Positions 1 through 13,329 of a stretch of DNA of 32,000 nt are shown piece by piece. Within the stretch, counting starts at the first letter, position 1; every line of letters starts with the position of its first letter. The notes beneath the pieces were generated by a model, which had not been told where the DNA came from, did no database searches, and saw only the letters and a program-made list of their open reading frames with translations. The stretch is taken from NCBI RefSeq assembly GCF_000015805.1, contig NC_009073.1:1350001-1382000 (forward strand), given 5' to 3'. Made by a program: the position numbers and the translations under genes. This DNA is from Pyrobaculum calidifontis JCM 11548. Its GTDB lineage: Archaea > Thermoproteota > Thermoprotei > Thermoproteales > Thermoproteaceae.

Positions 1-15
1 CCACTTGGGCCTGTG

Positions 16-35
16 CTTAAAAAGATTTATTCCAC
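16..35 (-). promoter_or_regulatory. GGAATAA-box plus TATA promoter pointing left, out of the window
   Basis: Minus strand reads GTGGAATAAATCTTTTTAAG. The driven gene would start left of position 1. Confidence 0.4.
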
Positions 36-58
36 TAATCTCGGAAAGACTTCCTCCA

Positions 59-77
59 GTGGAATAAGGTATATATA
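59..77 (+). promoter_or_regulatory. GGAATAA-box plus TATA promoter of the DsrE-like gene
   Basis: GTGGAATAAGGTATATATA. TATA is centred ~24 nt upstream of the ATG at 97. Confidence 0.5.
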
Positions 78-96
78 CATGCCCCAAGTCGCCCAC

Positions 97-447
97 ATGC
101 CGGATAAAGTGGCCTTCTTAGCCACAATGCCGCCTGCAGATGGGCCTAGAATTTCTACAATGCTCGGCTACGCCTTGGCAGCCGCCTCTATGGGATTCGA
201 GGTGTTGATTTTCTACACCTTGGACGCAGCCCACATAGTAAAAAAGAAAGTCTTTGAAAAACTAGACCCGCAGATTAGGGAGAGGTTTAAGCAGTGCATG
301 GACATGGGGTGTAAGATGTGGCTGTGCTCCTCGGCCGCGGCCACCTTCAACATAAAAGAGGACGAGGTAGTGGAGGGAGTCAAGATAATGGGCATAGCGA
401 GCTTCTACGAATACGCGGCTGAGGCCAAGGTTGTGCTCACTTGGTGA
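97..447 (+). CDS. DsrE/DsrF-like sulfur-relay family protein
   Basis: ORF-track 13..447 trimmed to the ATG at 97. The TATA tatatata at 70-77 is centred ~24 nt upstream, so the mRNA is leaderless. KVAFLATMPP...GFEVLIFYTLDA...WLCSSAA resembles the DsrE-like (COG2210-type) fold with a conserved Cys. Confidence 0.7.
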   Translation: MPDKVAFLATMPPADGPRISTMLGYALAAASMGFEVLIFYTLDAAHIVKKKVFEKLDPQIRERFKQCMDMGCKMWLCSSAAATFNIKEDEVVEGVKIMGIASFYEYAAEAKVVLTW

Positions 448-928
448 CCTCCACGGCGTCTACGTATCCAAACTTGTTTTTTAACTCTGCCAAGTACTCC
501 TCCGCCCTTTCTCTAATTAGCAAGGCCGCGATCTGGGCCCAGTTGAAGAAGCCCCACTCGAGGGGGACTGTGAACTTCACTGAGAGGAACCCGTAGAGGC
601 CGGACTCGTCGCATTTCACTGGGAATAGAGACATGGCGTAGTTGAGCCTGTACCCAGGCCAGGGGAGGTCCTCCACCTCGCCCAGGAGAGTGGTCTCCCC
701 CTCCGCGTCGGCGCAACCAGCGGTGGTAAAGACGCGTATGTTCAAGTCTATGAAGCCCATCTTGTACCTACTCCCGTCGAGGACCACCAAGGCGTAGAGG
801 TTGACGTCTCGGACCCAGAGGTGTAACTTTTCCGAGGGGTCTTGAAAGACGAGGACTTGGGGAAACTCCCGGAGGTAGACGGGGCGGGAAAAAGACCTTA
901 TCTTTTTTTCAAACTCCTCAAATTCCAT
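437..928 (-). CDS. Uncharacterised ~163-aa protein translationally coupled to dsrB copy 1 (orfX1)
   Basis: ORF-track 437..985 trimmed to the ATG at 928 (MEFEEFEKK...), which overlaps the dsrB1 stop by 11 nt. Divergent homolog of 7822..8322, sharing LFP(V/I)K...Y...KF and Y(L/F)xELK(N/K) blocks at matching positions. Confidence 0.6.
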   Translation of the reverse strand: MEFEEFEKKIRSFSRPVYLREFPQVLVFQDPSEKLHLWVRDVNLYALVVLDGSRYKMGFIDLNIRVFTTAGCADAEGETTLLGEVEDLPWPGYRLNYAMSLFPVKCDESGLYGFLSVKFTVPLEWGFFNWAQIAALLIRERAEEYLAELKNKFGYVDAVEVTK

Positions 929-2075
929 CTCTGAGCCGCGGGTAGACGTCGCCGCGGGATCTGTAGGTGAGGAACGTCCTGGCAAACTCAGGCACTCTCT
1001 GGTAGTAGTCTCTAACCTTGCCGAAGCCCAGCAGATCGAGGAACTTAGTCCACCCCACTCTCTCGATGAAGTCGGCGAGTCTCTCGCCGGGCTGGGCGTG
1101 CTGCCTCCACGTCTCTACTATGTGCTTTACCACGGCCACTATCTCCTCATACCTCGGCGGATTTGCGGGCAACCACGGTATCAACACCCGGCCCAGCCTG
1201 GGGCCAGTGCCAGTGTTAGACATCTTGCCGCCCACGAGTATTGACACGCCCACGTTTTCTGGGTCGTAGTCAAAGGCGTCGCAGTTCTCCTTACACCTGG
1301 CGCAGTTGATGCACTTTTCCCCAATTAGGACGAGCTTTACCTTGTCCCCCTCCCTCCTCAGAGAAAGGGCGCCGGTGGGGCAGACTTGGACTAGGAATAT
1401 CTGCGACTCCGGCAACTTGGCCAAGGCCTTAGGCGGCGGGAGACACATGGGGAGGACCTCCTCGCGTATCTTCGGCGGGGCGCCCCACTGGCCCACTATT
1501 GCTATATCTATAGCTGTGCCGCCAGCGCACATGGCCGGGCAACCGCTGACGAAGACCCTGAGCTTTGCGGGAAGCGGAATCTCGCCAGTGAAGTAGGGCT
1601 TCAGCGCATCGCCGAGGGCCTTGCTAATACTTGGGCTATCCACCACCGCGGTGGTGCACGTCAGATATGCAGTACAGCTGTTGATTCCCCACAAGGCGCC
1701 GCCCCAGCCTCCCACTGGGAAGCCCAGCTTCTCCACCTCCTCCTTGATCTTAAGCGCCTTCTCCAGAGAGTCTGTCAGAAACTCTATGTTGCCTGCCATG
1801 GTCACCCTCAGCGCGCCTATGCCCAACTTGTCCGCAATATCGGCAAATTTGTCCAACGTATCCGCCGAAAGCCTCGCGTTAGGCGGCAACGCGACTTTCA
1901 CAGTGAATATCCTCTCCCCAGTGGCAGAGACGTGCTCAATTATACCATTGCCATGGAACTTCCTATCCACCCACTTTCCATAGTTCCTGAGTATGGCCTC
2001 GGGCAGAAACTTCTCTAAGTCGACGGGGAAGACCTTCTGCAACCTCTCAGCCTTAGACGGGGCGGCGGCGGTCAT
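918..2075 (-). CDS. dsrB: Dissimilatory sulfite reductase-type protein, beta subunit (copy 1)
   Basis: Siroheme/[4Fe-4S] motifs CTAYLTC (Cx5C) and SGCPAMC (Cx3C). Ferredoxin insert CPTGA...CINCARCKENC. 4-nt overlap with dsrA1. Confidence 0.85.
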   Translation of the reverse strand: MTAAAPSKAERLQKVFPVDLEKFLPEAILRNYGKWVDRKFHGNGIIEHVSATGERIFTVKVALPPNARLSADTLDKFADIADKLGIGALRVTMAGNIEFLTDSLEKALKIKEEVEKLGFPVGGWGGALWGINSCTAYLTCTTAVVDSPSISKALGDALKPYFTGEIPLPAKLRVFVSGCPAMCAGGTAIDIAIVGQWGAPPKIREEVLPMCLPPPKALAKLPESQIFLVQVCPTGALSLRREGDKVKLVLIGEKCINCARCKENCDAFDYDPENVGVSILVGGKMSNTGTGPRLGRVLIPWLPANPPRYEEIVAVVKHIVETWRQHAQPGERLADFIERVGWTKFLDLLGFGKVRDYYQRVPEFARTFLTYRSRGDVYPRLRDGI

Positions 2076-3316
2076 ACCCCCACCTTGCCCTTGAGCTCTT
2101 CCACCAGCTTTAGGTACATGTCTCTCTCCTCCTTGGGCAACACTGCGTAGGGCACGTCGTCCGGCGTCTTGGCAATGGACTCGGGCATGCCCTCAAGCTT
2201 AATCCCAGCCTTCTCAATGAACTTGTCCAGCCCAGTCACCAAAATGTAGTCGCCGAGCCTGTACTTGGGCTGAGCCTCGGCCTCCCAGGGGGCAATGACC
2301 TTGAAGGTGAGGTCTATGGCCTCCTTCACCTGGTCCGGCCTTAGGTAGCCGATGAACCAGCCTAGCTTAGGCCCATACCTCCCCTTAACTCCGCCCCCAA
2401 TTACTACAGCGACTTTCCTATTCTTGCCTGGCTTTATGGCTGGGAAGGCTGTGCGGATGCAGTGCATAGACTTTTTGCACTTGCTCCCATCAATCACGAG
2501 CTCTTTCTTCTCGGCGTCCCACCTAATGGCGCCGCTGGGGCAGTTAGCGGCAAGCTTCACCGGGTCCACAACCCCCCTCTCCACAAGCTCCCTAAACTTA
2601 GCCTGATCCACCTCAGGAGCACCCTCCCACACGCCAATGAAGCCTATGTCTGCCCTGTTGGCGCGGGCGCAGTCCAGAGGACAGCCAGATATTTTGATCT
2701 TGAACTTGTAGGGGTAGTTGGGCGTCGCTATGTTGTCGTTGACGCGTTTGTCTTTGTGAAACTCCGCGTACCACTTCAAGGTGTCGAAGAGGGCGAATTC
2801 GCATAGGGCGGGCCCGACGCAGGCGTTGAGGGCTCTTATGGCGTCTCCGCTGCCGCCTACGTCTGTGCCTATGGACCTAAGGGCGTCCACCATCTCCTCT
2901 GCCTTGTCGGGCGTTAGGTTGAGGACAAAGGCGCCGGTCTGCCCCACCACCTCTATAAGTCCCACTCCCAGCTCTCTGGAGATCTTTGTAATCTTTCTTA
3001 TGAAGTCGGTCTTCCAGAACTTGCCTGGGGTGTGGAAGACTCTGAAGTGCACCTCTACGCCGCCGCCTGGAACCCAGTCTCTGGCCCACCGGGATAATAC
3101 CCCCGTGTTTACATAGGCCACCTTGACGGCGCCGGGGCCCCAGGGGGACTTCCTAGCCGCGAGGCCCACGCCGTAGACTCTGAGCGGGTACTGGGTCTTC
3201 CTCAGCTCCGCCACGTGGCTCGGCCAAGGCCCCTTCTCAAGCTCTTTCAATATCTCCTCGGCCCTCTGTAGAAGCTGGTCGGGCGGCGGTAGGTTGGGCG
3301 GTGCTGACATGAGCAT
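2072..3316 (-). CDS. dsrA: Dissimilatory sulfite reductase-type protein, alpha subunit (copy 1)
   Basis: Motifs CVGPALC (Cx5C) and SGCPLDC (Cx3C), plus ferredoxin-like insert CPSGAIRW...CKKSMHC. The second ATG at 3310 fits the TATA spacing better. Confidence 0.85.
   Translation of the reverse strand: MLMSAPPNLPPPDQLLQRAEEILKELEKGPWPSHVAELRKTQYPLRVYGVGLAARKSPWGPGAVKVAYVNTGVLSRWARDWVPGGGVEVHFRVFHTPGKFWKTDFIRKITKISRELGVGLIEVVGQTGAFVLNLTPDKAEEMVDALRSIGTDVGGSGDAIRALNACVGPALCEFALFDTLKWYAEFHKDKRVNDNIATPNYPYKFKIKISGCPLDCARANRADIGFIGVWEGAPEVDQAKFRELVERGVVDPVKLAANCPSGAIRWDAEKKELVIDGSKCKKSMHCIRTAFPAIKPGKNRKVAVVIGGGVKGRYGPKLGWFIGYLRPDQVKEAIDLTFKVIAPWEAEAQPKYRLGDYILVTGLDKFIEKAGIKLEGMPESIAKTPDDVPYAVLPKEERDMYLKLVEELKGKVGV
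2424..2629. repeat. Near-identical 206-nt tract shared with 9771..9976 (dsrA ferredoxin-like insert)
   Basis: By-eye alignment shows about 5 mismatches in 206 nt, all synonymous. Flanking dsrA sequence is much more diverged. Confidence 0.8.
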
Positions 3317-3330
3317 ATCTACGTGCCCCC

Positions 3331-3350
3331 TTTTAAGCCCTATTCCTAAC
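3331..3350 (-). promoter_or_regulatory. GGAATA-box plus TATA promoter of dsrA copy 1
   Basis: Minus strand reads GTTAGGAATAGGGCTTAAAA, 18-24 nt upstream of the ATGs at 3316/3310. Confidence 0.5.
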
Positions 3351-3368
3351 CAACGTGTAACAACTGTT

Positions 3369-3842
3369 TTACACAGATGTACATACGACGCGCAGAGAGG
3401 CTTTTACCCTCTCTGCCACTGGCGAGAGGGCGGCCGCCAGCTCTCCGTCTATTAGCCCGCGTTTGACCAGGTATATGTACAAAAGCTCAACGTCGTTAAG
3501 CGGCATATCGGGCCTGTAGAGCTTAGCCACCTTCTCAACAAGCGCGAGGGCGCGCGGCCCGTCTAGGCCCCACTTCGAGGCCAGCTTATCCACTAAGTAC
3601 CGCCGGGGCCCCTCCCTCTGGATGAGGGCTATGATGCCCATGGGAGTGGCTTTGTAGACCCTCTGCCCCCTAGACGCCGCGGCTGAGGCCAAGAAGCCTC
3701 GCCTTTCGAGTTCCACCACCTTCTTGTAGGTGTAGGAGAAGAAGAGGCGGTTATCGACGGCTATCCTATAAGCTGTCACGGGCTCGCGCATGGCGACATA
3801 AGACAAGATTAGGTACTCCCTCTCGTCGAGTTTATCAAACAT
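3369..3842 (-). CDS. Winged-helix (wHTH) transcriptional regulator, archaeal type
   Basis: N-terminal YLILSYVAMREPVTAYRIAVDNRLFFSYTYKKVVELERRGFL looks like HTH plus wing. Paralog of 4167..4877. Its own promoter carries the GGAATAA box. Confidence 0.55.
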   Translation of the reverse strand: MFDKLDEREYLILSYVAMREPVTAYRIAVDNRLFFSYTYKKVVELERRGFLASAAASRGQRVYKATPMGIIALIQREGPRRYLVDKLASKWGLDGPRALALVEKVAKLYRPDMPLNDVELLYIYLVKRGLIDGELAAALSPVAERVKASLRVVCTSV

Positions 3843-3860
3843 GGAGGTAGGGAGGCAACA

Positions 3861-3880
3861 CTAATTATCTCTTATTCCGC
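3861..3880 (-). promoter_or_regulatory. GGAATAA-box plus TATA promoter of wHTH regulator 3369..3842
   Basis: Minus strand reads GCGGAATAAGAGATAATTAG. TATA is ~23 nt upstream of the ATG at 3842. Confidence 0.5.
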
Positions 3881-3946
3881 CGACGCGGCGGAAGTATTTC
3901 CCCCACCCTTGTAATAACGTTTATAACTATCCAACGGGGTAGGGCC

Positions 3947-4192
3947 ATGTTGACCTACGACGATGTGGTGTCCAAGTTCTGCCTCTGCGACATAGAGATA
4001 TACCTAAAAGTGAAAGACGGCGTGGTGGTCGCTCCCGCCCAGTACGCGGGGAAAAGGGCAGAGGAGGTCCTTAAGGCGGCGAAGGGCGTTGTAGTGAAGA
4101 CGGAGCAAGGCGGATACCTCCACTACTTCGTAATACGTAGGTCTGCCTACCTCAGGAAGACCGCAGTCAAGCCTGCCGCGGCCCTAGCCTAA
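3947..4192 (+). CDS. Small hypothetical protein (81 aa)
   Basis: ATG at 3947 lies 23 nt downstream of TATA tttataac (3920-3927). No recognisable domain. Confidence 0.4.
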   Translation: MLTYDDVVSKFCLCDIEIYLKVKDGVVVAPAQYAGKRAEEVLKAAKGVVVKTEQGGYLHYFVIRRSAYLRKTAVKPAAALA

Positions 4193-4877
4193 TTCTCCCA
4201 ACTATTTTTTCCATCAGCGTGGGGCAGGGGTCTAGGCTACAGTACTTGTCCCGCCCGCACATCTTACAATGGGCAGCGAAGAGCTTGTACCCACCGTCCT
4301 CTTTAAATAACACCGCCGTATACTCCTCATCTCTCACTATAAGCGCTTCGTCAAATATCTTCCTCACCAACGATATAACCGCATAGGCGGCCACTCTGCT
4401 GGCCAACACCGCGTCCCCCCTCTCCATCTGGGAAAAACACTTCTCAAGCCTATTCCCACACCTCGTGGCCAAGTAGGCTCCCACCAGCTCCAGCCCCTCG
4501 AGGGGGGCATCCCCTGCGGCCACCCTCCCGTAGAACTTCAGAAAGGCCTCCACCTCCTCGTCTGAGAAGGACTCCAGCCTAAGCCTCCGCTTGATCTTGG
4601 CCAAGATGAGGGACTTAGGCGCAGTGCCGTAGATCAGCGGGATTAAGAGCCCCCTCACCGTGGCGTAGTACACTGTGGATCTCCCAGCCGACGCGGGCTC
4701 GAGGAGGCGCTGCGCTACGAGCTTATTCACCTTTCTATACACATGAGAGAAGTGCATGTTGAGCCCCCGCGCCACTCTGTACATAGTAACAGGCTCGTTT
4801 ACGGCCACAAAGGACACCATGGCCCTAGCGGTTTCGTCGACCTTTACCCCAACAAGACTAGAAAGTTCGACCAACAT
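4167..4877 (-). CDS. wHTH transcriptional regulator with Cys-rich C-terminal domain
   Basis: N-terminal VAVNEPVTMYRVARGLNMHFSHVYRKVNKLVAQRLL is paralogous to 3369..3842. The C-terminal domain has Cx6C and CKMCGRDKYCSLDPC (Cx2C-x5-C-x4-C). Confidence 0.55.
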   Translation of the reverse strand: MLVELSSLVGVKVDETARAMVSFVAVNEPVTMYRVARGLNMHFSHVYRKVNKLVAQRLLEPASAGRSTVYYATVRGLLIPLIYGTAPKSLILAKIKRRLRLESFSDEEVEAFLKFYGRVAAGDAPLEGLELVGAYLATRCGNRLEKCFSQMERGDAVLASRVAAYAVISLVRKIFDEALIVRDEEYTAVLFKEDGGYKLFAAHCKMCGRDKYCSLDPCPTLMEKIVGRIRLGPRQA

Positions 4878-4959
4878 TAGTAATATGATAGCCGAGGTTA
4901 ATAAACGTTTCTAACAATAATGATCTATCACACAATTTTTTACAAACATACACGTGAAT

Positions 4960-5415
4960 CTATCCGGGCGCATGGTGTAAAAGCTTGTACATCTCCATAT
5001 ACCTCCTCTCGAGGATGTACGCTACTTTCCTAAACTTCTCCACGTCTATGTCGGTGACGCAGACGCAACCCACCTGCCCGCCGCTGGCCTCCACCATGAC
5101 CACTCTCCCCTCGGCCACTCCCAGGAGGATGGCCGACTCCTCGCCTCCATACAGCTCGACGTAGGGGGGCTCCACCGAGACGGGAGAGGCCTTAGACACG
5201 CAGTCGGGGTAGGCTGTGGCCTTGATGGCCTCCACTAGCTCCCCGTCTTCCAAGCACCGGGGCTCCCCCTCCCCCTCGAAGACGAGGAGGTCCCCCTTGA
5301 CCCAGAGCCCGTCCCAGAGGGCCATGTCGTAGCCGCTGGGCTTGCAGGGGCGGCCCCTGGCGCTTATCCATTTGGCCAACAGCTGGAAAAAGTCGGGTAT
5401 TGATACAACGCTCAC
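4960..5415 (-). CDS. Hypothetical Cys-containing protein (151 aa) downstream of tusA
   Basis: GTG start 8 nt after the tusA stop. No recognisable domain. Six Cys residues. Confidence 0.45.
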   Translation of the reverse strand: MSVVSIPDFFQLLAKWISARGRPCKPSGYDMALWDGLWVKGDLLVFEGEGEPRCLEDGELVEAIKATAYPDCVSKASPVSVEPPYVELYGGEESAILLGVAEGRVVMVEASGGQVGCVCVTDIDVEKFRKVAYILERRYMEMYKLLHHAPG

Positions 5416-5422
5416 ACGCCGC

Positions 5423-5650
5423 TTACTTGAGCCTGCGAACTACAATGCGTAGGTACCCCTCGGCGGTTTTCTCAGAGGAGACCACCTCGTGCCCCATGCG
5501 CTTGGCCCACGCCCTTATGTCTGGATCCGCCGCGGGGTCGGTGGCGAGGACCTCCAAGACGTCGCCCACGGGCACCTCGTTTATGGCCTTGGCAGTCTCC
5601 ATAACGGGGATAGGGCAGAACTTCCCCCTCACGTCCAACGTCTTGGGCAT
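5423..5650 (-). CDS. tusA: TusA/SirA-like sulfurtransferase
   Basis: ORF-track 5423..5737 trimmed to the ATG at 5650 (MPKTLDVRGKFCPIPV). Classic LDxRGxxCPxP motif. TATA is 24 nt upstream. Confidence 0.8.
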   Translation of the reverse strand: MPKTLDVRGKFCPIPVMETAKAINEVPVGDVLEVLATDPAADPDIRAWAKRMGHEVVSSEKTAEGYLRIVVRRLK

Positions 5651-5669
5651 AAGGTAAGGGGAGGCTACG

Positions 5670-5688
5670 TTTAAAAGCCTTATTCCAC
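5670..5688 (-). promoter_or_regulatory. GGAATAA-box plus TATA promoter of tusA 5423..5650
   Basis: Minus strand reads GTGGAATAAGGCTTTTAAA. TATA is ~24 nt upstream of the ATG. Confidence 0.55.
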
Positions 5689-5697
5689 AGCCCCTGG

Positions 5698-6126
5698 CTA
5701 CTTCTCGCTTACCTGTTTTAGGTTCTCCTCCATGCAACTGCCCATGGCCTTTAGCAGAGTCACCATGAGGCCCATGGCCTTCTGCACCTCTGGGTCACGC
5801 ATGGCGGAGAGGAGGCCGAAGAGCCCCACACGCGGCGCCCCGTCCTCGGCCACCTGTCTCAACGCCTTGCTGGCGCAGACCACGCCTCCCTGCATGGCGG
5901 CGCCCAAGGCGTTCAAGTCAGCCGAGTCCATTATGGACAACATGGAGATGAGCGGCGCCGCCACTTTGAACACCTGTATGTCCGCCATTAGGTGGGGCAA
6001 CTTCTCCAGCACGATCTTTACTGGGAGGAGGAGGGAGCTCAACTCCTCCACCTCCCTGCGCAGGGCCTGCACCTCCTGCAGAAGTCTCTCGTAGTCGGCC
6101 TTGGGTATTGTGACTACCTCGCTCAT
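5698..6126 (-). CDS. DUF1641-like protein (partner of SQR/NDH-II-type flavoproteins)
   Basis: C-terminal GLFGLLSAMRDPEVQKAMGLMVTLLKAMG resembles the DUF1641 signature. 4-nt overlap with the upstream flavoprotein gene. Confidence 0.6.
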   Translation of the reverse strand: MSEVVTIPKADYERLLQEVQALRREVEELSSLLLPVKIVLEKLPHLMADIQVFKVAAPLISMLSIMDSADLNALGAAMQGGVVCASKALRQVAEDGAPRVGLFGLLSAMRDPEVQKAMGLMVTLLKAMGSCMEENLKQVSEK

Positions 6127-7283
6127 GGCACTACCCCCAGAAGCCAGTTGAAGTACACTTTCTCAAACATCTCCTTGAACAATCGCGTCGCAGGTGCTGG
6201 CGGAAGGAACATGCAGTCGGGGTACGGCTTCTGCTTTTTCACAAACGGCGTGAAGTCGCAGGCAGCGGCCATTCCAAAGGCCCCCACGTCTAAGGCGCAT
6301 GTGCCAACAATTCTAAACGGGGGCTTCCCGAGGTATACGCCGAATAGGTCGGCGGCTATGTTGCTTATAACCCAGGGCATGTAGCTGTGTAGAATTGTCC
6401 CAGCCATCCCCACTGGGACGTTGGGAGCGGCAACGTCGCCTATTACGTATACGTCGTCGTATTTTGCGCTTCTAAAGTCGCCGTTGGCGGGGTTGCGAGG
6501 CGCCGCCCACCCATTTTTAGCCAAGTCACTGTTGAGCACGGGGTCCGGCGCCTTGTGCGGCGGGACAATAAAGGCCGCGTCGAACTTAAACTTCTCCCCG
6601 GTGGTGGTTTCCAGCTCGCTCTTGCCCAAGCTCTTGATTGCCGTGGACTGCCCCACGCCGACGTATTCAATCCCCAGCTGCTGTAGGAAGCCGGACATCC
6701 ACTTGGCCGCCATTGGGCCAAAGTTCTCAAAGGGCCTCTTGAGCGGGTGCACCACAGTTATCTTGACCTTGTCTCTCAGTCCCCGGGTTAGGTAGTAGAA
6801 GTGGGTAAGCATTGCCAGCTCGATGGGGGCTGGCGGACAGCGGTAGGGCAGAGAGTAAACGCCGATGACGATGTGCCCCTGCTTCACCTGGGCGAGGGCC
6901 TCGGCAACCTTGAGAGAAGGCTCTAGCTCCCACGTGTGGGGGAACCCAGTCTCTACGGTCTCTGCGCCGAGGGCCACCACCAACACGTCGTAGGTAAACT
7001 CCCCGGCCGTCGTCTTCACCTTCCTATTGGCCGCGTCTATGGCTGTCACCTTGGCCTTCACAAAATTTACCCCGTGGCGTTTTACGTGCTCAAGAGGGAC
7101 AGAGACTTCCTCCGGCCTCCTGTAGCCAAAAGCCACGTAGAGGTACGAAGGCCTAAAGTCCGTCCTATCCTTGGCGTCTATGAGCGTTATTTCCACATCC
7201 CCCGGCCCAAACCTCTCCCTAAGCTCCTTCACAGTCATTAAGCCGCCAGTTCCACCGCCCAGAACCAACACCTTTTTGGGCAT
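6123..7283 (-). CDS. sqr: Sulfide:quinone oxidoreductase-type FAD flavoprotein
   Basis: KVLVLGGGTGG Rossmann motif. Conserved-Cys contexts PYRCPPAPIE and GTCALDVG, plus VYVIGD. Start moved to the ATG at 7283 (TATA 24 nt upstream). Confidence 0.75.
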   Translation of the reverse strand: MPKKVLVLGGGTGGLMTVKELRERFGPGDVEITLIDAKDRTDFRPSYLYVAFGYRRPEEVSVPLEHVKRHGVNFVKAKVTAIDAANRKVKTTAGEFTYDVLVVALGAETVETGFPHTWELEPSLKVAEALAQVKQGHIVIGVYSLPYRCPPAPIELAMLTHFYYLTRGLRDKVKITVVHPLKRPFENFGPMAAKWMSGFLQQLGIEYVGVGQSTAIKSLGKSELETTTGEKFKFDAAFIVPPHKAPDPVLNSDLAKNGWAAPRNPANGDFRSAKYDDVYVIGDVAAPNVPVGMAGTILHSYMPWVISNIAADLFGVYLGKPPFRIVGTCALDVGAFGMAAACDFTPFVKKQKPYPDCMFLPPAPATRLFKEMFEKVYFNWLLGVVP

Positions 7284-7302
7284 AGACTTCACTTTCCAAA
7301 AA

Positions 7303-7320
7303 GTATTAAAGCATTATTTC
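7303..7320 (-). promoter_or_regulatory. Degenerate (GAAATAA) box plus TATA promoter of sqr
   Basis: Minus strand reads GAAATAATGCTTTAATAC. TATA is ~24 nt upstream of the ATG at 7283. Confidence 0.4.
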
Positions 7321-7369
7321 TCTCGTGTGGTAATAAAAATGTGAAAAATTGCCGGCGTTGTGGGAAGGA

Positions 7370-7792
7370 TTATATAAACAGAGTGACGGAGGCGTCCTTT
7401 GCCCTCTCGAGGAAGGTGGCGGCGCCCACCACCTCGTCCACGAAATCGGCGAGTTGCGCCTTGTCTTTTATGCCAAACATCTCCATGGTGGTAGAGCACG
7501 CGTAGACGCGTACGTTGCCCATGGACTTGGCTTGTCTTATAAGCTCGTGCCACGGCGGGAAGTTCATCTGCTTAACCGCCTGAGCCACCGCGGGGGCATA
7601 CTCTGCGAAGTCGGCCGAGATCTTCATCTGGGACAAGTTCTCCTTCCTAATGGCGTTTAGCCCCCAGAAGGTGAAAAAGAGCTCCACGTCCCAGCCCCCA
7701 GCGGCGGCCGCGCTCGAAAGAATGGCCACGGGGTACAGCTTGTCCACAGTGCCGCTCCACACGATTATTGCAAGCTTGTTTTTCTTTTCCAT
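7370..7792 (-). CDS. dsrE: DsrE3-type DsrE/DsrF-like sulfur carrier protein
   Basis: KLAIIVWSGTVDKLYPVAIL...VELFFTFWGLNAIRK...VYACSTTMEMFGI is typical of COG2210/DsrE3-like proteins with the active Cys. Confidence 0.75.
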   Translation of the reverse strand: MEKKNKLAIIVWSGTVDKLYPVAILSSAAAAGGWDVELFFTFWGLNAIRKENLSQMKISADFAEYAPAVAQAVKQMNFPPWHELIRQAKSMGNVRVYACSTTMEMFGIKDKAQLADFVDEVVGAATFLERAKDASVTLFI

Positions 7793-7810
7793 GCGAAAAA
7801 CTCTCTCTCT

Positions 7811-7830
7811 ATTAATAAGAGTTATTCCAC
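7811..7830 (-). promoter_or_regulatory. GGAATAA-box plus TATA promoter of dsrE 7370..7792
   Basis: Minus strand reads GTGGAATAACTCTTATTAAT and overlaps the stop codon of orfX2. TATA is ~23 nt upstream of the ATG. Confidence 0.55.
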
Positions 7831-8322
7831 GCCCTCAGTGGAAGTACTTGTCAACGCCTTTTTAAGCTCTAGGAAATACGCGTCGCTGTCTAGCTCGAAC
7901 TGGTCTATCAAGTCCTCAATGTTTCCAGCAGTTAAGTTTTCCACAAAGGTCTTAAACCCCATCGCGGCGTAGACCACCTCCCCCTCCTGTTTTATTGGGA
8001 AGAGGAAGGGCGCCGGGTTGCCGAACTTCTCCACAGAGAACCTAGTCGTGGCGTCCTCCAGCTCCTCCACGTTGGAGACGCCCTCAAGGCGCCTCACGTC
8101 GTCCAGGTTCAAGAAGGCCAAGGCGTAGCCCTCCTCAGTCTTCAAGGCAGTGACAAGGTAGGGCCTGGGCCTACCCGGGAGGGAGAGGATGTAGGTGGCC
8201 TCGGCCCCCTCCTCCAGCTTCGCCAGCTCGTGGACCAAGTCCTCTACCTCCCCCAGCTCCTCAACTCCGTGGTTAAACCTAAGCCTTAGTAAAAAGTCCC
8301 CAATTATGTCGTAGATGCTCAC
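7822..8322 (-). CDS. Uncharacterised ~166-aa protein translationally coupled to dsrB copy 2 (orfX2)
   Basis: 4-nt overlap with the dsrB2 stop. Divergent homolog of 437..928. Confidence 0.6.
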   Translation of the reverse strand: MSIYDIIGDFLLRLRFNHGVEELGEVEDLVHELAKLEEGAEATYILSLPGRPRPYLVTALKTEEGYALAFLNLDDVRRLEGVSNVEELEDATTRFSVEKFGNPAPFLFPIKQEGEVVYAAMGFKTFVENLTAGNIEDLIDQFELDSDAYFLELKKALTSTSTEGVE

Positions 8323-9419
8323 GCCAAGAACTGCCTTATGCCGAACTCGCCCTCAAATTTCACGGGCTTATTCCACTTGGTGACTGGGATGTTCAACATC
8401 TCGTAGAACTTCTCCATGCCAATTCTGTGCACCCAGTCGCCCAGCCTCTCCCCCTCCCTGGCGTTCTGCCTCCACACGTCGATTATCTTCTTCACCACGG
8501 CCACGATTTCCCTATACGCGGGCGGGATGGCTGGCACCCAGGGTATTACCTGCACCGAGGGGAGCGGGCCTCTGCCTGTGTTGCTCGCCTTGCCGCCTAT
8601 GAGCACGGCCACTCCGGCCTTGCTCTGGTCGAAGTCAATCCAGTCACAGACGTCGCGGCAGCGGCCGCAGGCGATGCACTTGGACCTAATTATGTCGAGG
8701 CCCACAGAGCCGTCGGGTTTTCCATACACCTTTATGGCGTTGGTGGGGCACACCTCGGCCACCTCTGGCACGTGGCCGGCCTCCAGGGCCTTGGCGGACT
8801 TGGGGAGGCAGAGTTTTATCCTCTCGGGGTCGTAGGTGGGGGCGTCTCCGTAGTGGCCCACCAGGTTTATGTCCGCTGTGAACCCGCCGCAACTGCTGGG
8901 GCAACCAGAGACGTTTATCCTAAGCTTCGCCGGGAGAGTTATCTCGCCTGTGAAGTAGGGCTTAAGCGCGTCGTAGAGAACCTTGGTAATGCTGGGCGCG
9001 TCCACCACCGCTGTGGTGCACGTCAGAAAGGCAGTACAGCTGTTTATAGACCATATGGTGGGGCCCCAGCCTCCCACTGGGAAGCCCAGCTTCTCCACGG
9101 CCTCCTTGATCTTAAGCGCGTTCTCTAGAGAGTCTGCCATGAACTCCACGTTTCCGTTTCTGGTAATCCTCAGCGCCCCGATGCCGTAGGTGTCAGCGAT
9201 TTCGACAAACTTCTTGAGAGTGTCGACGCTGACCCGGAAGTTGGGCGGCGTGCCCACCTTCACTGTGAATATCCTCTCCCCAGTGGCAGAGACGTGCTCA
9301 ATTATGCCGTAGCCGTGGAACTTCCTATCCACCCACTTGCCCAAATTCCGCTTCAGCGCCTCCGGCAGCCAGTCGGTGTAGGGTACTGGGAGCCTCTTCT
9401 TAAACCTCTCAGCGCTCAT
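8319..9419 (-). CDS. dsrB: Dissimilatory sulfite reductase-type protein, beta subunit (copy 2)
   Basis: CTAFLTC and SGCPSSC motifs. Ferredoxin insert CPTNA...CIACGRCRDVC. 4-nt overlap with dsrA2. Confidence 0.85.
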   Translation of the reverse strand: MSAERFKKRLPVPYTDWLPEALKRNLGKWVDRKFHGYGIIEHVSATGERIFTVKVGTPPNFRVSVDTLKKFVEIADTYGIGALRITRNGNVEFMADSLENALKIKEAVEKLGFPVGGWGPTIWSINSCTAFLTCTTAVVDAPSITKVLYDALKPYFTGEITLPAKLRINVSGCPSSCGGFTADINLVGHYGDAPTYDPERIKLCLPKSAKALEAGHVPEVAEVCPTNAIKVYGKPDGSVGLDIIRSKCIACGRCRDVCDWIDFDQSKAGVAVLIGGKASNTGRGPLPSVQVIPWVPAIPPAYREIVAVVKKIIDVWRQNAREGERLGDWVHRIGMEKFYEMLNIPVTKWNKPVKFEGEFGIRQFLA

Positions 9420-10654
9420 AGCTTGTACTCAGCCACTATCTTGTTGACCCAGTCTAGCCACATCTTCCTCTCCTCGTCGTCGAGCACCGCGCCCGCCCTA
9501 AGCGACGGGTGTAAGGTGGGCTTGCCCTGCGGCTTCACCTTCACCACCTCCTCGAGGTAGCGCTTGAAGCCTACCTTCATGATGAAGTCCCCAATCCTGT
9601 CCTTGTGCTTAACCATGCCCTTCTCCATGCCCTCCATCCAAGCCTCGACAGTCTTCACCACCCAGTCCGCGGCCTCCTTGTAGTCGTTGACTATGGCCAA
9701 GGGCTTGGACATCTTTCCGCCAAATCTGCCCTTGACGTGGCCGCCCACGAGCACCGCAATCTTCCTGTTTTTGCCTGGCTTTATGGCTGGGAAGGCTGTG
9801 CGGATGCAGTGCATAGACTTTTTGCACTTGCTCCCGTCTATCACGAGCTCTTTCTTCTCGGCGTCCCACCTAATGGCGCCGCTGGGACAATTGGCGGCAA
9901 GCTTCACCGGGTCCACAACCCCCCTCTCCACAAGCTCCCTAAACTTAGCCTGATCCACCTCAGGAGCACCCTCCCAGATGCCTATAAAGCCGAAGTCGGC
10001 GCGGTGCACTGCCCTAGTGCAGTCGAATGGGCATCCCGAGAACTTGGCCTTGAATTTGAAGGGGAACAGCTGGTTGCTCATCCACTCGTATATCTTGGGG
10101 TGGGTTAAGAAGTAGTCCCGCGCCGCGAGGGTGTCGTATAGGGCGAACTCGCAGAGGGCGGGCCCGACGCACGTGGCCAGCTCTCTGATGGTGTCGCCGG
10201 TGGCCCCCACGTCTGTTCCAATGGCCCTCAAGGCGTCGATGGCCTCATCCGCCTTCTCCGGCTGGATGGAGATAATCATCATCCCCTGTTGGCCGGCCAG
10301 CTCCACGAGGCCTAGGCCGTACTTTTCAATGAACTCGATCAGCTGGCGGAGCTTCTGCGTGGTGTATATCTGGCCCGAGGGCTGCCATACTCTGAAGTGG
10401 AGCTCCGCGTATTTTCCATCCCTGGTCCTCCTGGCGATGAAGCCAGTGTAGACGAACCGTATCTTGGCGGAGCCAGCGGCCCACATGGTCTTCCTAGCCG
10501 CCAGCCCCGCCCCGTAGGCGTCTATGGGGTAGTTGGTCTTCTTGAGCTCCGCCACGTGGCTCGGCCAAGGCCCCTTCTCGTAGTACTCAAGGATGCGGCG
10601 CCCCTCTTCTGCATATGCGTCAACAGTTAGGGGCTTTTTCTCAACAGTTTCCAT
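9416..10654 (-). CDS. dsrA: Dissimilatory sulfite reductase-type protein, alpha subunit (copy 2)
   Basis: CVGPALC and SGCPFDC motifs. The ferredoxin-like insert is identical to copy 1 over ~70 aa. TATA is 22 nt upstream of the ATG. Confidence 0.85.
   Translation of the reverse strand: METVEKKPLTVDAYAEEGRRILEYYEKGPWPSHVAELKKTNYPIDAYGAGLAARKTMWAAGSAKIRFVYTGFIARRTRDGKYAELHFRVWQPSGQIYTTQKLRQLIEFIEKYGLGLVELAGQQGMMIISIQPEKADEAIDALRAIGTDVGATGDTIRELATCVGPALCEFALYDTLAARDYFLTHPKIYEWMSNQLFPFKFKAKFSGCPFDCTRAVHRADFGFIGIWEGAPEVDQAKFRELVERGVVDPVKLAANCPSGAIRWDAEKKELVIDGSKCKKSMHCIRTAFPAIKPGKNRKIAVLVGGHVKGRFGGKMSKPLAIVNDYKEAADWVVKTVEAWMEGMEKGMVKHKDRIGDFIMKVGFKRYLEEVVKVKPQGKPTLHPSLRAGAVLDDEERKMWLDWVNKIVAEYKL
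9771..9976. repeat. Partner of the 2424..2629 near-identical tract
   Basis: Same as above. The antisense ORFs 2352..2606 and 9687..9953 give identical peptide strings across it. Confidence 0.8.
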
Positions 10655-10670
10655 GGTAACCCATGGTTTT

Positions 10671-10692
10671 GTTTAAAAATTCCTTATTCCCC
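10671..10692 (-). promoter_or_regulatory. GGAATAA-box plus TATA promoter of dsrA copy 2
   Basis: Minus strand reads GGGGAATAAGGAATTTTTAAAC. TATA is ~22 nt upstream of the ATG at 10654. Confidence 0.55.
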
Positions 10693-10736
10693 TTTTCTGT
10701 GCAATACAGCAATAAATACCCCACATAGGTATATAC

Positions 10737-11546
10737 ATGCCCACTGTGGTAATAACCTCGGGGAGGGCACACAAGGCGGACCTCCTGGCCAAGATGTTGA
10801 CCAGGGCAGGCATAGAGCCTGTCTACCTCCCCGTGGTAAAGATAGGAGAGGCCGGGGGTGCGGACGTGGCGAAGTTCATCGACGAGATATCCCACTTCGA
10901 CGTCTTCATATTCATGACTGGGCAGTCGGTTGCAAGCTTAGTGCAAGAGGCTAAGAGGGCTGGGCTAGAGCAGAGGCTTAGGGAGGCCCTCTCCAGGATG
11001 ACTATTCTGTGTAGGGGCAGCAAGGCCGCTGGCAACGTGAAATCTCTCCTAGGCCTCACCTGCGCCGTGGTGGAGGAGACCTCGGAGGAGCTGTTGAAGG
11101 TTGCTGAGAGAACGCTTGAGGGGAAGAGGGTGGCCATATCGTTCTACGGGTACCTAGACGACGAGTTTCTGCGGGAGGTGCAGAAGAGGGCCGCAGAGGT
11201 GAAGTACATACAGACCTACAGGACAGAGCTTGAGGAAAATGCGGCAGAGATAGCGAAGCTGGTCTTGGCGGGGGAGGCAGACGTGGTGGTCTTCACAAGC
11301 GCTCTGGCCTGCAACAGCTTTTTCACACAGCTCAGCGCCCTAGGCCTAGCCGAAAAAGTGGCCAACCGGTTTAGGTCGGGCGCCGTTAAGCTGGCGGCGG
11401 TGGGGCCAGTCACGGCAGAAGAGTGCAAAAAATTTGGCGTAGAGCCGCACATTGTGCCAGAAAAGCCCTTCTTGGCGTATCTCGGCGAGGCCATCATAAG
11501 GCACTTAAAACCAACGCTGAACACCGACAGCGTGAGGACACAATAG
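10737..11546 (+). CDS. hemD: Uroporphyrinogen-III synthase (HemD-like)
   Basis: Two-lobed pattern VVITSGR...FDVFIFMTGQSV and ADVVVFTSALACNSF...LAAVGPVTA is typical of HemD. TATA aataaata is 22 nt upstream. Confidence 0.6.
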   Translation: MPTVVITSGRAHKADLLAKMLTRAGIEPVYLPVVKIGEAGGADVAKFIDEISHFDVFIFMTGQSVASLVQEAKRAGLEQRLREALSRMTILCRGSKAAGNVKSLLGLTCAVVEETSEELLKVAERTLEGKRVAISFYGYLDDEFLREVQKRAAEVKYIQTYRTELEENAAEIAKLVLAGEADVVVFTSALACNSFFTQLSALGLAEKVANRFRSGAVKLAAVGPVTAEECKKFGVEPHIVPEKPFLAYLGEAIIRHLKPTLNTDSVRTQ

Positions 11547-11553
11547 CGGCCTC

Positions 11554-12948
11554 TCAGCCTGCGCAACAGGAGAGTTTTGTCACATCTTTGTAGAAGGCCA
11601 GCGCGGCTAGTCTGGCGGCTTCGCCGAAGGTGGGAAACGCGGGTATCATATCAGCAATGTCGTCCACCGTTAGGCCGTGGGCCACCGCCATGGCGAAGAT
11701 GTGTATCAGCTCCTCTGCCTGCGGCGCGGCGGCCACCGCGCCGGCTATTTTCCCGCCGCGCATGGAGATGCGCCACGTCTGGGGGTAGGTGTTTATCTTT
11801 ATGAAGCCGTCCAGGCGCCCGGAGGCCCACGCGGCGGCCACCGCGGATACGGGGGCCAGCCGGCAGACGCAACCCACTCCGCTTTTCAACATGTCCTCCT
11901 CCCTCATCCCCACGGAGGCCACGGGTGGGTCTGTGAAGACGACGCGGGGGACGTGCAGTGGGTTAAACCTGGCGTCGCCCCCTAGCGCGTTTATGGCCGC
12001 CACCACGCCCTGCCTCGCCGCGGCGTTTTCTAGATATCTCCCGCCGGGCAGTCCCCCCGTGACGTCCCCCGCCGCATATACTCCGGGGAGGCTGGTCTCC
12101 ATCCTCTCGTTCACCTTCACCGAGCCCTCCGGGTTCAGCTCCACGAGCCCCCCGGCTGCCTCTGAGTTCGGCCTTCTCCCAGCGGCGATGAAGAGAGCCT
12201 CTCCCCTCGCCCTAGACCCCTCCCGCCCCACCACCTCCACGCCGCCGTCCACGCGCCGCACTGCCACAGCCTCGTCGTGTATCACCTCGACCCCCTCCTC
12301 CCTCAGCACCTCCTCCACGAAGTGGGACGCCACCTCCTCCTCGTACTTCAACAGTCTGCCCCTCGTGAATATGGCGGTCTTAACCCCCAGCCTGTTGAGG
12401 GCTTGGGCCAGCTCCACGGACACGGCGCCGCCGCCTATGAACACCACGCTGGAGGGCTCCCCAAGCTCAAACAAGCTCTCGTTGGTGTAGTACCTCACCT
12501 CCTCCAGCCCCTTTATCGCCGGGACGGCGGGCCTGGCCCCCGTGGCTATCAACACCCGCCTGGCCTCTATCGTCCTATCCCCCACCTTTACCGCGTTGGC
12601 AGAGGCGAGAACGCCGAAGCCCTCAACGTAGTCTATGCCGTAGTACTCCAGGAGGTCTATGTACTTCTCCTGCCTAAGCCTCTCCACCACGCCGGCGGCG
12701 CCCCTCAAGAGGTCCCCAAGGCGGACCTCCACCGTTGCCTTGACGCCGGGGTAGTACCCCATCTTCGCCCTGTGGACAACCTCAGCCGCCTTGGCCAAGT
12801 ACTTGGTGGGGACACACCCCACGTTGACACAGGTCCCCCCGGGGGGCAGGCCGGCGTTAACCATGACCACCTTGGCGCCCAGCTCAGCCGCCTTTATAGC
12901 CGCGGCAAAGCCCGCGGAGCCTCCCCCCAAGACGCAGAGGTCGTACAC
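11554..12948 (-). CDS. merA: Mercuric reductase-type class I pyridine nucleotide-disulfide oxidoreductase (core MerA, no NmerA domain)
   Basis: GGGSAG FAD motif. Redox centre GGTCVNVGCVPTK. C-terminal KLSCCAG vicinal Cys pair characteristic of MerA. Confidence 0.7.
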   Translation of the reverse strand: MYDLCVLGGGSAGFAAAIKAAELGAKVVMVNAGLPPGGTCVNVGCVPTKYLAKAAEVVHRAKMGYYPGVKATVEVRLGDLLRGAAGVVERLRQEKYIDLLEYYGIDYVEGFGVLASANAVKVGDRTIEARRVLIATGARPAVPAIKGLEEVRYYTNESLFELGEPSSVVFIGGGAVSVELAQALNRLGVKTAIFTRGRLLKYEEEVASHFVEEVLREEGVEVIHDEAVAVRRVDGGVEVVGREGSRARGEALFIAAGRRPNSEAAGGLVELNPEGSVKVNERMETSLPGVYAAGDVTGGLPGGRYLENAAARQGVVAAINALGGDARFNPLHVPRVVFTDPPVASVGMREEDMLKSGVGCVCRLAPVSAVAAAWASGRLDGFIKINTYPQTWRISMRGGKIAGAVAAAPQAEELIHIFAMAVAHGLTVDDIADMIPAFPTFGEAARLAALAFYKDVTKLSCCAG

Positions 12949-12951
12949 GCC

Positions 12952-13329
12952 CTAGCCCTCCCCCCTGTTTATATTCCTTACGCACGCCAAGGCCCTTTCC
13001 ACAAAGGACCTGGCGGCTCTGTCGAAGAACTCCTTTCCAAGGAAGTTCAAGAGGCCCGTCTGCCTCCCCTTGAACCGCCACTTGCCCCCCGCCACGGAGA
13101 GCTCGAAGTTGTTCACAGTGCCCAGCCCCTCCAGCCTCCCCTCTAAGACGAGGGGGCTCTGGGAGAGGACGCGGAGGTAGAGCTTGACCTCCCCCGCGCC
13201 GAATGGCCCAGAGGCGGCGTAGACGCGGTACTCCCCCTCCTGCCCCCTAGGCGTAAATCCGAGGCACTGCGCCATTTCGTCTACGTCCACGTGGGACAGC
13301 TCGGCCTCCCCCTCGTAGTAGAGCTCCAC
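12952..13329 (-). CDS. Hypothetical protein (125 aa) immediately upstream of merA
   Basis: 3-nt gap to the merA start and 12-nt gap after the hemD-like gene. No recognisable domain. Confidence 0.45.
   Translation of the reverse strand: MELYYEGEAELSHVDVDEMAQCLGFTPRGQEGEYRVYAASGPFGAGEVKLYLRVLSQSPLVLEGRLEGLGTVNNFELSVAGGKWRFKGRQTGLLNFLGKEFFDRAARSFVERALACVRNINRGEG

Follow-up and report, generated by a model that had tools for sequence, protein, structure and literature searches.

The window analysed here, a stretch of 32,000 nt from the genome of Pyrobaculum calidifontis JCM 11548 (NC_009073.1) whose numbering is used for all coordinates below, contains two dsrAB operons, type 1 and type 2, both encoded on the minus strand. 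The two dsrA genes, diverged over most of their length, share one near-identical tract. This tract corresponds to one structural unit of DsrA, its inserted ferredoxin domain, and in related genomes the same part of the gene was homogenised independently from one lineage to the next. The sequence comparisons make it very probable that the tract is a product of recurrent gene conversion between the dsrA paralogs, by which the ferredoxin domain would evolve in concert in the Pyrobaculum/Thermoproteus family.

The near-identical tract in the dsrA genes of P. calidifontis

A preliminary description of the window had counted about 5 differences in 206 positions between the two copies of the tract, all of them synonymous, and had estimated the identity of the paralogs outside it at roughly 50% upstream and 30% downstream. 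The exact count was 5, at positions 2489 (A/G), 2492 (A/T), 2540 (G/A), 2543 (G/A) and 2546 (A/G); all five fall at third codon positions and are silent, and the 69 encoded residues are the same in both DsrA proteins. The maximal-scoring-segment search recovered the limits of the tract (2424-2629 and 9771-9976) to the base, and only these two copies of it were found in the P. calidifontis genome. Nucleotide identity was 97.6% in the tract, 61% in the N-terminal flank and 52% in the C-terminal flank. At the protein level the flanks were 50% (aa 30-224) and 35% (aa 302-410) identical between the paralogs, in line with the earlier estimates. Where the paralogs have the same residue, the same codon was used at 63 of 69 positions in the tract versus 55% of positions outside it (binomial P = 5e-11), and a chance origin of the identity is excluded. 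The synonymous divergence (dS, calculated by the Nei-Gojobori method) between the two copies was 0.13 in the tract versus 1.0-1.1 in the flanks. A uniform dS along the genes, which the preliminary description had set against conversion, was therefore not seen.

The five differences are confined to two runs, the third positions of two adjacent codons (2489-2492) and of three adjacent codons (2540-2546). With random placement of five differences, two or fewer clusters would be obtained with P = 7e-4. Such clustering suggests patchy (discontinuous) conversion, which fits it better than five independent mutations. Triplet-spaced runs of differences of a similar kind were also observed in two of the compared genomes, G001 and G010 (labels of this form denote the compared genomes, G000 being P. 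calidifontis, and labels such as L020 denote the compared loci).

The exact 35-nt patch reported earlier in both dsrA genes was confirmed without a single mismatch. In other genomes the paralogs differ at silent sites in these codons, and an exact match was detected in P. calidifontis only. It is probably a lineage-specific short conversion patch, although it may also be a chance match at a conserved motif.

The position of the tract in the protein was established by alignment with known structures. The tract aligned to residues about 238-304 of Archaeoglobus fulgidus DsrA (3mm5_A), a segment containing the CP...CxxCxxC cluster motif, and DsrA residue 229 aligned with residue 485 of Fsr (7npa_A), at which the inserted ferredoxin domain of Fsr begins (PMC10229431). 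The 158 positions of the Pfam NIR_SIR model were spread over 219 DsrA residues, which corresponds to an interruption of about 65 aa. Both DsrA and DsrB have been described as three-domain proteins, the third domain being ferredoxin-like and interrupting domain 2 between two of its strands (bioRxiv 10.1101/2021.12.28.474277). Judged by these alignments, the converted tract matches the predicted inserted ferredoxin domain, give or take a few residues. In DsrB, by contrast, the equivalent domain is one of the regions in which the two paralogs have diverged most.

The atypical cysteine pattern noticed previously in the insert was also borne out, CKKSMHC being present where A. fulgidus DsrA has CVRCMHC. 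The motif, encoded at 2462-2482 and 9809-9829 (codons 280-286), reads C259 ... C280-K-K-S283-M-H-C286. The set of four cysteine ligands (CP ... CxxCxxC) for a [4Fe-4S] cluster is thus incomplete, its middle cysteine being replaced by serine, which makes the cluster type uncertain. The serine is shared by the two paralogs and by every type-1 and type-2 relative. A third paralog, present in G007, G017 and G024, retains the cysteine (CKKCMYC). Genomes from other families (G027, G030 and G031) and one copy in G033 have alanine at this position; the other G033 copy has serine.

Homogenisation of the same domain in related genomes

DsrA was searched in 41 related genomes and then in 29 genomes of the family, and 11 genomes were found to carry both type 1 and type 2. 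Six of these 11 genomes are single contigs and four are metagenome-assembled genomes (MAGs). The comparison of within-genome pairs on codon alignments revealed that a segment of DsrA from about residue 224 to 299 was 94-100% identical within the genome in 10 of the 11 genomes, and that its sequence differed between genomes. No mismatches between the tracts were present in Pyrobaculum oguniense TE7 (G002, 0/224), G004 (0/220), G005 (0/224) and G024 (0/202). Few were present in G012 (2/183), P. calidifontis itself (5/206), G001 (5/215), G008 (5/162) and G010 (7/123), the tract of the last being cut by a contig end. In G013 the identity took the form of an exact run of 1,016 nt, from about codon 201 of dsrA to codon 124 of dsrB. 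The only pair that was not homogenised was that of G018, which belongs to another genus. Its ferredoxin domains were 69% identical in DNA, apart from a 47-nt patch, and 68% identical in protein, versus 46% and 35% protein identity in the two flanks. The starts of the tracts clustered at dsrA nt 671-703 and complete tracts ended at nt 864-896. Boundaries specific to a single lineage, for which the preliminary description had proposed a comparison with related genomes, were thus not what was found, as the same domain is homogenised in ten of the eleven.

In the complete genome G005 the type-1 dsrA gene (L040, G005:C1:1107776-1108926) was found in two frames, encoding aa 29-140 and aa 138-412, as a result of a frameshift or a sequencing error. 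The tract of this split gene is still identical to the type-2 copy at 224 of 224 positions.

The nucleotide alignment displayed, genome after genome, variants that the paralogs of one genome had in common and that no other genome possessed. A 2-codon deletion is present in both copies of G013, and the same holds for G024; the tract sequence of P. calidifontis is unlike that of any other genome. The close relatives G002 and G005 are 94-95% identical in the flanks and 91% identical in the tracts, each tract being 100% identical within its own genome, which means that homogenisation took place separately after their recent split. To account for the data, a minimum of eight independent homogenisations is required. 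Since the pattern is found in six single-contig genomes, it is not an artefact of MAGs.

In G024, the third dsrA paralog (L043 compared with L012), whose identity to type 1 is about 70%, and the homogenised tract of that genome have nearly the same codons over a patch of about 66 nt (aa 231-252). This patch indicates that the third copy occasionally participates in conversion.

Across the compared genomes, dS of the tract within a genome ranged from 0 to 0.41. Between species the tract was 67-87% identical in DNA with dS of about 0.25 to >2, similar to the flanks, and its dN/dS ratio (nonsynonymous to synonymous divergence) of 0.05-0.24 was no lower than that of the N-terminal region. Conservation of the tract between orthologs at the nucleotide level, considered in the preliminary description as the other outcome contrary to conversion, was therefore not observed.

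Maximum-likelihood trees were built separately for the N-terminal flank (aa 30-222), the tract (aa 228-297) and the C-terminal flank (aa 303-410). Both flank trees separated a type-2 clade from a clade of type 1 together with the third paralog (support 96/94 for the N-terminal and 100/99 for the C-terminal flank). The tract tree paired the genes by genome, with support of 100/100 for G000, 100/100 for G001, 100/97 for G012, 99/96 for G004 and 89/69 for G024, the pairs of G002, G005 and G013 being identical rows. In the approximately unbiased (AU) test, the tract rejected monophyly of type 2 (p 2e-6), and the flanks rejected a grouping of the two P. calidifontis genes in one clade (p 3e-32 for the N-terminal and 5e-8 for the C-terminal flank).

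Shorter tracts of the same kind were detected in dsrB, at aa 34-60, 97-124 and 132-152, where within-genome identity of 0.80-1.0 was found versus means of 0.72-0.83 for type-1/type-2 comparisons across genomes. Here, too, the copies of one genome have genome-specific variants in common. For aa about 34-60 the within-genome identity was 0.80-1.0 versus a cross-genome mean of 0.78, and for aa about 97-124 genome-specific shared variants were present in seven genomes. In G033, from a different family of the order, the two dsrAB copies (L024 compared with L047) show long runs of identical codons interspersed with diverged stretches, and this applies to dsrA as well as to dsrB. Mosaic conversion between dsr paralogs seems, from such sequence patterns, to be general in the order.

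In G013, a single-contig genome of 2,222,430 bp, the two dsr operons are identical over 1,016 nt (L020:1125-2140 compared with L041), and the run stops exactly at the boundary of the dsrB tract at aa 124. As a result, both DsrA and DsrB from the type-1 locus are hybrid proteins. As this locus carries type-2 sequence and the type-2 locus is intact, the event was non-reciprocal. In the MAG G001 (L021 and L045), the flank trees assigned one dsrA copy a type-1 N-terminal and a type-2 C-terminal part, followed by a type-2 dsrB, and the other copy a type-2 N-terminal and a type-1 C-terminal part, followed by a type-1 dsrB. The latter copy carries an in-frame TGA. The arrangement of a type-2 N-terminal with a type-1 C-terminal part and a type-1 dsrB was also found in the MAG G012 (L044 and L022), where a contig ends within the tract of the other copy and interrupts it. 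From their sequences the chimeras of G001 and G012 look reciprocal. They could be explained either by an inversion through a crossover in the tract or by mis-assembly of the MAGs at the repeat.

The orientation of the operons bears on the outcome of a crossover. The operons of P. calidifontis are direct repeats, the dsrB2-dsrA2-hemD block (about 8300-13000) being inverted relative to P. oguniense TE7 (L048), and crossing over in the tract would here remove the 7.3 kb that separates the copies. In all other genomes with both operons on one contig, the operons are mutually inverted (divergent or convergent). A crossover in the tract would there invert the interval and thus yield the arrangement of the chimeras.

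Proposed mechanism, alternative explanations and known systems

The proposed mechanism is homologous recombination without crossover between the dsrA genes, in which about 210-220 nt would repeatedly be overwritten by the other copy. The flanks of each gene would keep their own paralog identity while the ferredoxin domain is homogenised. Ectopic recombination would be seeded in the only long stretch with sufficient homology; the ferredoxin domain has by nature diverged less than any other part of the two proteins, as in the unconverted G018 pair, and would for this reason offer enough homology for strand exchange. Each conversion would reset the identity to 100% and ease the next one, so that an island of identity could perpetuate itself. 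At the type-specific flanks the heteroduplex would stop, or the recombinants would be purged. The edges of the tract do differ by type, with I/L versus F at codon 224, V versus I at codon 302, G versus H at codon 309 and a 1-codon indel five codons upstream. The residual 2- and 3-codon differences in P. calidifontis may be leftovers of uncoordinated short-patch resolution of mismatches in the heteroduplex.

Several points weigh against this explanation or limit it. Four of the 11 genomes are MAGs, in which a repeat of 200 nt could collapse or be mis-joined, although the six single-contig genomes are alike. That the boundaries of different lineages fall within about 10-30 nt of one another could just as well be due to selection, either against chimeras or for identity, and the account of the boundaries by a neutral, self-perpetuating island is our inference. 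With the close relatives all homogenised too, a comparison of the tract with the unconverted G018 pair and the third paralog gave no donor or direction of conversion for P. calidifontis, as the tract tree lacked resolution at that depth.

A possible, though clearly less probable, alternative is that conversion was only the mechanism and that homogenisation was driven by selection. Identity of the ferredoxin domain would then be favoured by a shared partner (the single DsrC, a common electron donor or mixed heterotetramers) and function would set the boundaries. The coincidence of the tract with a structural domain and the recurrence of its boundaries in independent lineages are as such a reading predicts, as is the presence of two DsrAB pairs with one DsrC gene, and the domain changes fairly fast between species and yet is identical within genomes. 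However, identity is not obligatory, as G018 possesses both paralogs although the protein identity of their ferredoxin domains is no more than 68% (69% in DNA); this argument applies likewise to the docking surface that, according to the preliminary description, both enzymes may share. Moreover, G013 tolerates a 1,016-nt conversion reaching into dsrB, the tracts of G008 and G010 have drifted to 94-97% identity, and the similar short tracts in dsrB lie at segments that are merely conserved, as homology-limited conversion predicts.

A more elaborate version, in which the domain is a shared module, appears rather unlikely. Conversion would be selected for the sake of a partner used by both isoenzymes, either the only DsrC or a single electron donor, and the tract would also serve as a crossover point giving rise to hybrid sulfite reductases, in G001 and G012 and, non-reciprocally, in G013. 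As part of the same improbable proposal, the crossover would swap the N-terminal halves and promoters against the C-terminal half and dsrB.

A single recent conversion peculiar to P. calidifontis is very unlikely. The present identity of 97.6% is necessarily lineage-specific and the tract is unlike all others, but ten of the 11 genomes have each their own homogenised tract at the same place and the tract tree pairs the genes by genome. As an exclusive explanation, the single event was ruled out by this recurrence together with the tract tree.

Still less credit can be given to a nucleotide-level constraint, that is, an embedded RNA, an antisense gene or a regulatory element. Silent sites are identical within a genome and antisense open reading frames (ORFs) at 2352-2606 and 9687-9953 overlap the tracts. 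Orthologous tracts, however, differ by 13-33% in DNA, with the dS values given above, and antisense ORFs are a usual by-product of G+C-rich coding sequence. No Rfam family matched window positions 1-12000 at E<=1. The divergence of the tract between species excludes an embedded nucleotide-level element, and the candidate RNA or regulatory element was dropped on this ground and on the Rfam result. Of the two causes offered in the preliminary description, recent non-reciprocal recombination or extreme constraint, conversion was upheld by dS and by the divergence between species and constraint was not; nor did the notion of one recent event survive, in view of the independent homogenisation in 10 of the 11 genomes. 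Least probable of all is an assembly artefact with a collapsed or copied repeat, since, although contigs ending inside the tract in two MAGs (G010 and G012) indicate that assemblers struggle with the repeat, the P. calidifontis copies differ at 5 positions and in their flanks within a single-contig genome and the six single-contig genomes are alike.

Concerted evolution by gene conversion has known parallels. Among archaeal chaperonin (thermosome) paralogs, conversion was reportedly described by Archibald & Roger in 2002 as recurrent and limited to part of the gene, with conflicting trees of the segments. The similarity to dsrA lies in recurrent, lineage-independent conversion in Crenarchaeota restricted to part of a gene. 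However, the thermosome is another protein family, and the dsrA tract is a single inserted domain of about 70 residues with sharp, recurring boundaries in paralogs that are otherwise 35-50% identical. Unlike in the thermosome genes, apparent crossover products (chimeras) are also found at the same site in dsrA. Ectopic conversion of the RecA type keeps duplicates such as tufA/tufB in Salmonella and the rRNA operons identical within a genome and divergent between species. Identity within the genome and divergence between species are likewise seen in dsrA, but whole genes and equivalent duplicates are concerned in those systems, whereas in dsrA it is one domain of functionally diverged paralogs.

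With regard to mechanism, marker conversion during homologous recombination in Sulfolobus acidocaldarius proceeds in short, discontinuous and uncoordinated patches (Mao & Grogan 2012, PMC3367456). This organism is also crenarchaeal, and uncoordinated short patches would leave islands such as 2489-2492 and 2540-2546. That work, however, dealt with laboratory transformation with short donor DNAs, and the case described here is putative natural ectopic conversion of chromosomal paralogs, known from sequence.

The dsrAB genes form a single-copy operon apart from multi-operon cases in which one copy is deep-branching (PMC4351914). The present genomes resemble those cases in having more than one dsrAB operon with one copy deep-branching; recombination between the copies is not mentioned there. 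Full-text literature searches and the main papers on dsrAB phylogeny and evolution yielded no mention of recombination or conversion between the Pyrobaculum dsrA copies. Recurrent, domain-bounded concerted evolution is thus a known process that is apparently new for dsrAB.

As a marker gene for organisms that reduce sulfite and sulfate, dsrAB is the standard choice. Archaeal (Thermoproteales) sequences lie near the root of the DsrAB trees on which arguments about how sulfur respiration arose are based (PMC4351914, PMC7174415, PMC12948486). In the genomes concerned, roughly one sixth of dsrA carries the history of the genome and not that of the paralog, and some of the genes are half-and-half chimeras. 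Consequently, full-length trees, clades defined by identity thresholds and dating that include Pyrobaculum/Thermoproteus mix two signals. The tract also offers an unusually clean natural example of single-domain conversion, with about ten replicates and the same boundaries, from hyperthermophilic archaea, a group in which little is known of recombination systems in vivo. From this example one can read off which part of DsrA can be swapped between two diverged isoenzymes and which parts cannot.

Features of the locus

The features of the two operons are listed in Table 1. The type-1 DsrA protein exceeded the curated equivalog cut-off of TIGR02064 (NCBIfam) and was 80-82% identical to its orthologs in related genomes. 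The second protein was 53% identical to type 1 and 74-80% identical to type-2 orthologs. TIGR02064 was by far its best family; as its score was below the cut-off, the gene was named dsrA-like type 2. Both DsrB proteins passed the cut-off of TIGR02066.

Table 1. Features of the type-1 and type-2 dsrAB operons in the window of P. calidifontis JCM 11548
Feature	Coordinates	Strand	Remarks
dsrB type 1	918..2075	-	385 aa; TIGR02066 456.8 bits; putative short converted patches
dsrB patch, ALKIKE.VEKLGFPVGGWG region	1701..1736	-	DsrB aa about 97-124; 36-nt exact run; partner 9063-9098
dsrB patch, IIEHVSATGERIF region	1903..1943	-	DsrB aa about 34-60; 41-nt exact run; partner 9265-9305
dsrA type 1	2072..3316	-	414 aa; TIGR02064 434.5 bits, above the cut-off of 392.85
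Putative converted tract in dsrA type 1	2424..2629	-	codons 230-298, inserted ferredoxin domain; 5/206 mismatches to partner
35-nt exact patch EKGPWPSHVAEL in dsrA type 1	3204..3238	-	0/35 mismatches to 10545-10579
dsrB type 2	8319..9419	-	366 aa; TIGR02066 359.5 bits; putative short converted patches
dsrA-like type 2 paralog	9416..10654	-	412 aa; TIGR02064 330.7 bits, below the cut-off of 392.85
Putative converted tract in dsrA type 2	9771..9976	-	98% identity to the type-1 copy
35-nt exact patch in dsrA type 2	10545..10579	-	partner of 3204-3238

The P. calidifontis genome is a single contig of 2,009,313 bp with exactly two dsrA and two dsrB genes. Besides its two DsrAB pairs it has a single DsrC-family gene, located at G000:C1:1349664-1349966, shortly ahead of the window. 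Among the products of genes that separate or surround the operons are TusA, a DUF1641 protein, a Pyr_redox_2/FCSD-like flavoprotein, a DsrE-like protein and HemD, and the region was on this basis regarded as a sulfur-metabolism island. The small ORFs located 3' of each dsrB gene (437-985 and 7822-8322) showed no significant similarity to one another by BLASTP and thus do not belong to the converted unit.

DsrA homologs from MAGs of Thermoplasmata/Thermoplasmatota (L051 and L052) were 56-58% identical to the type-2 paralog. They match type 2 as well as type 1 does (53-55%), and better than the DsrA proteins from other families of the order.

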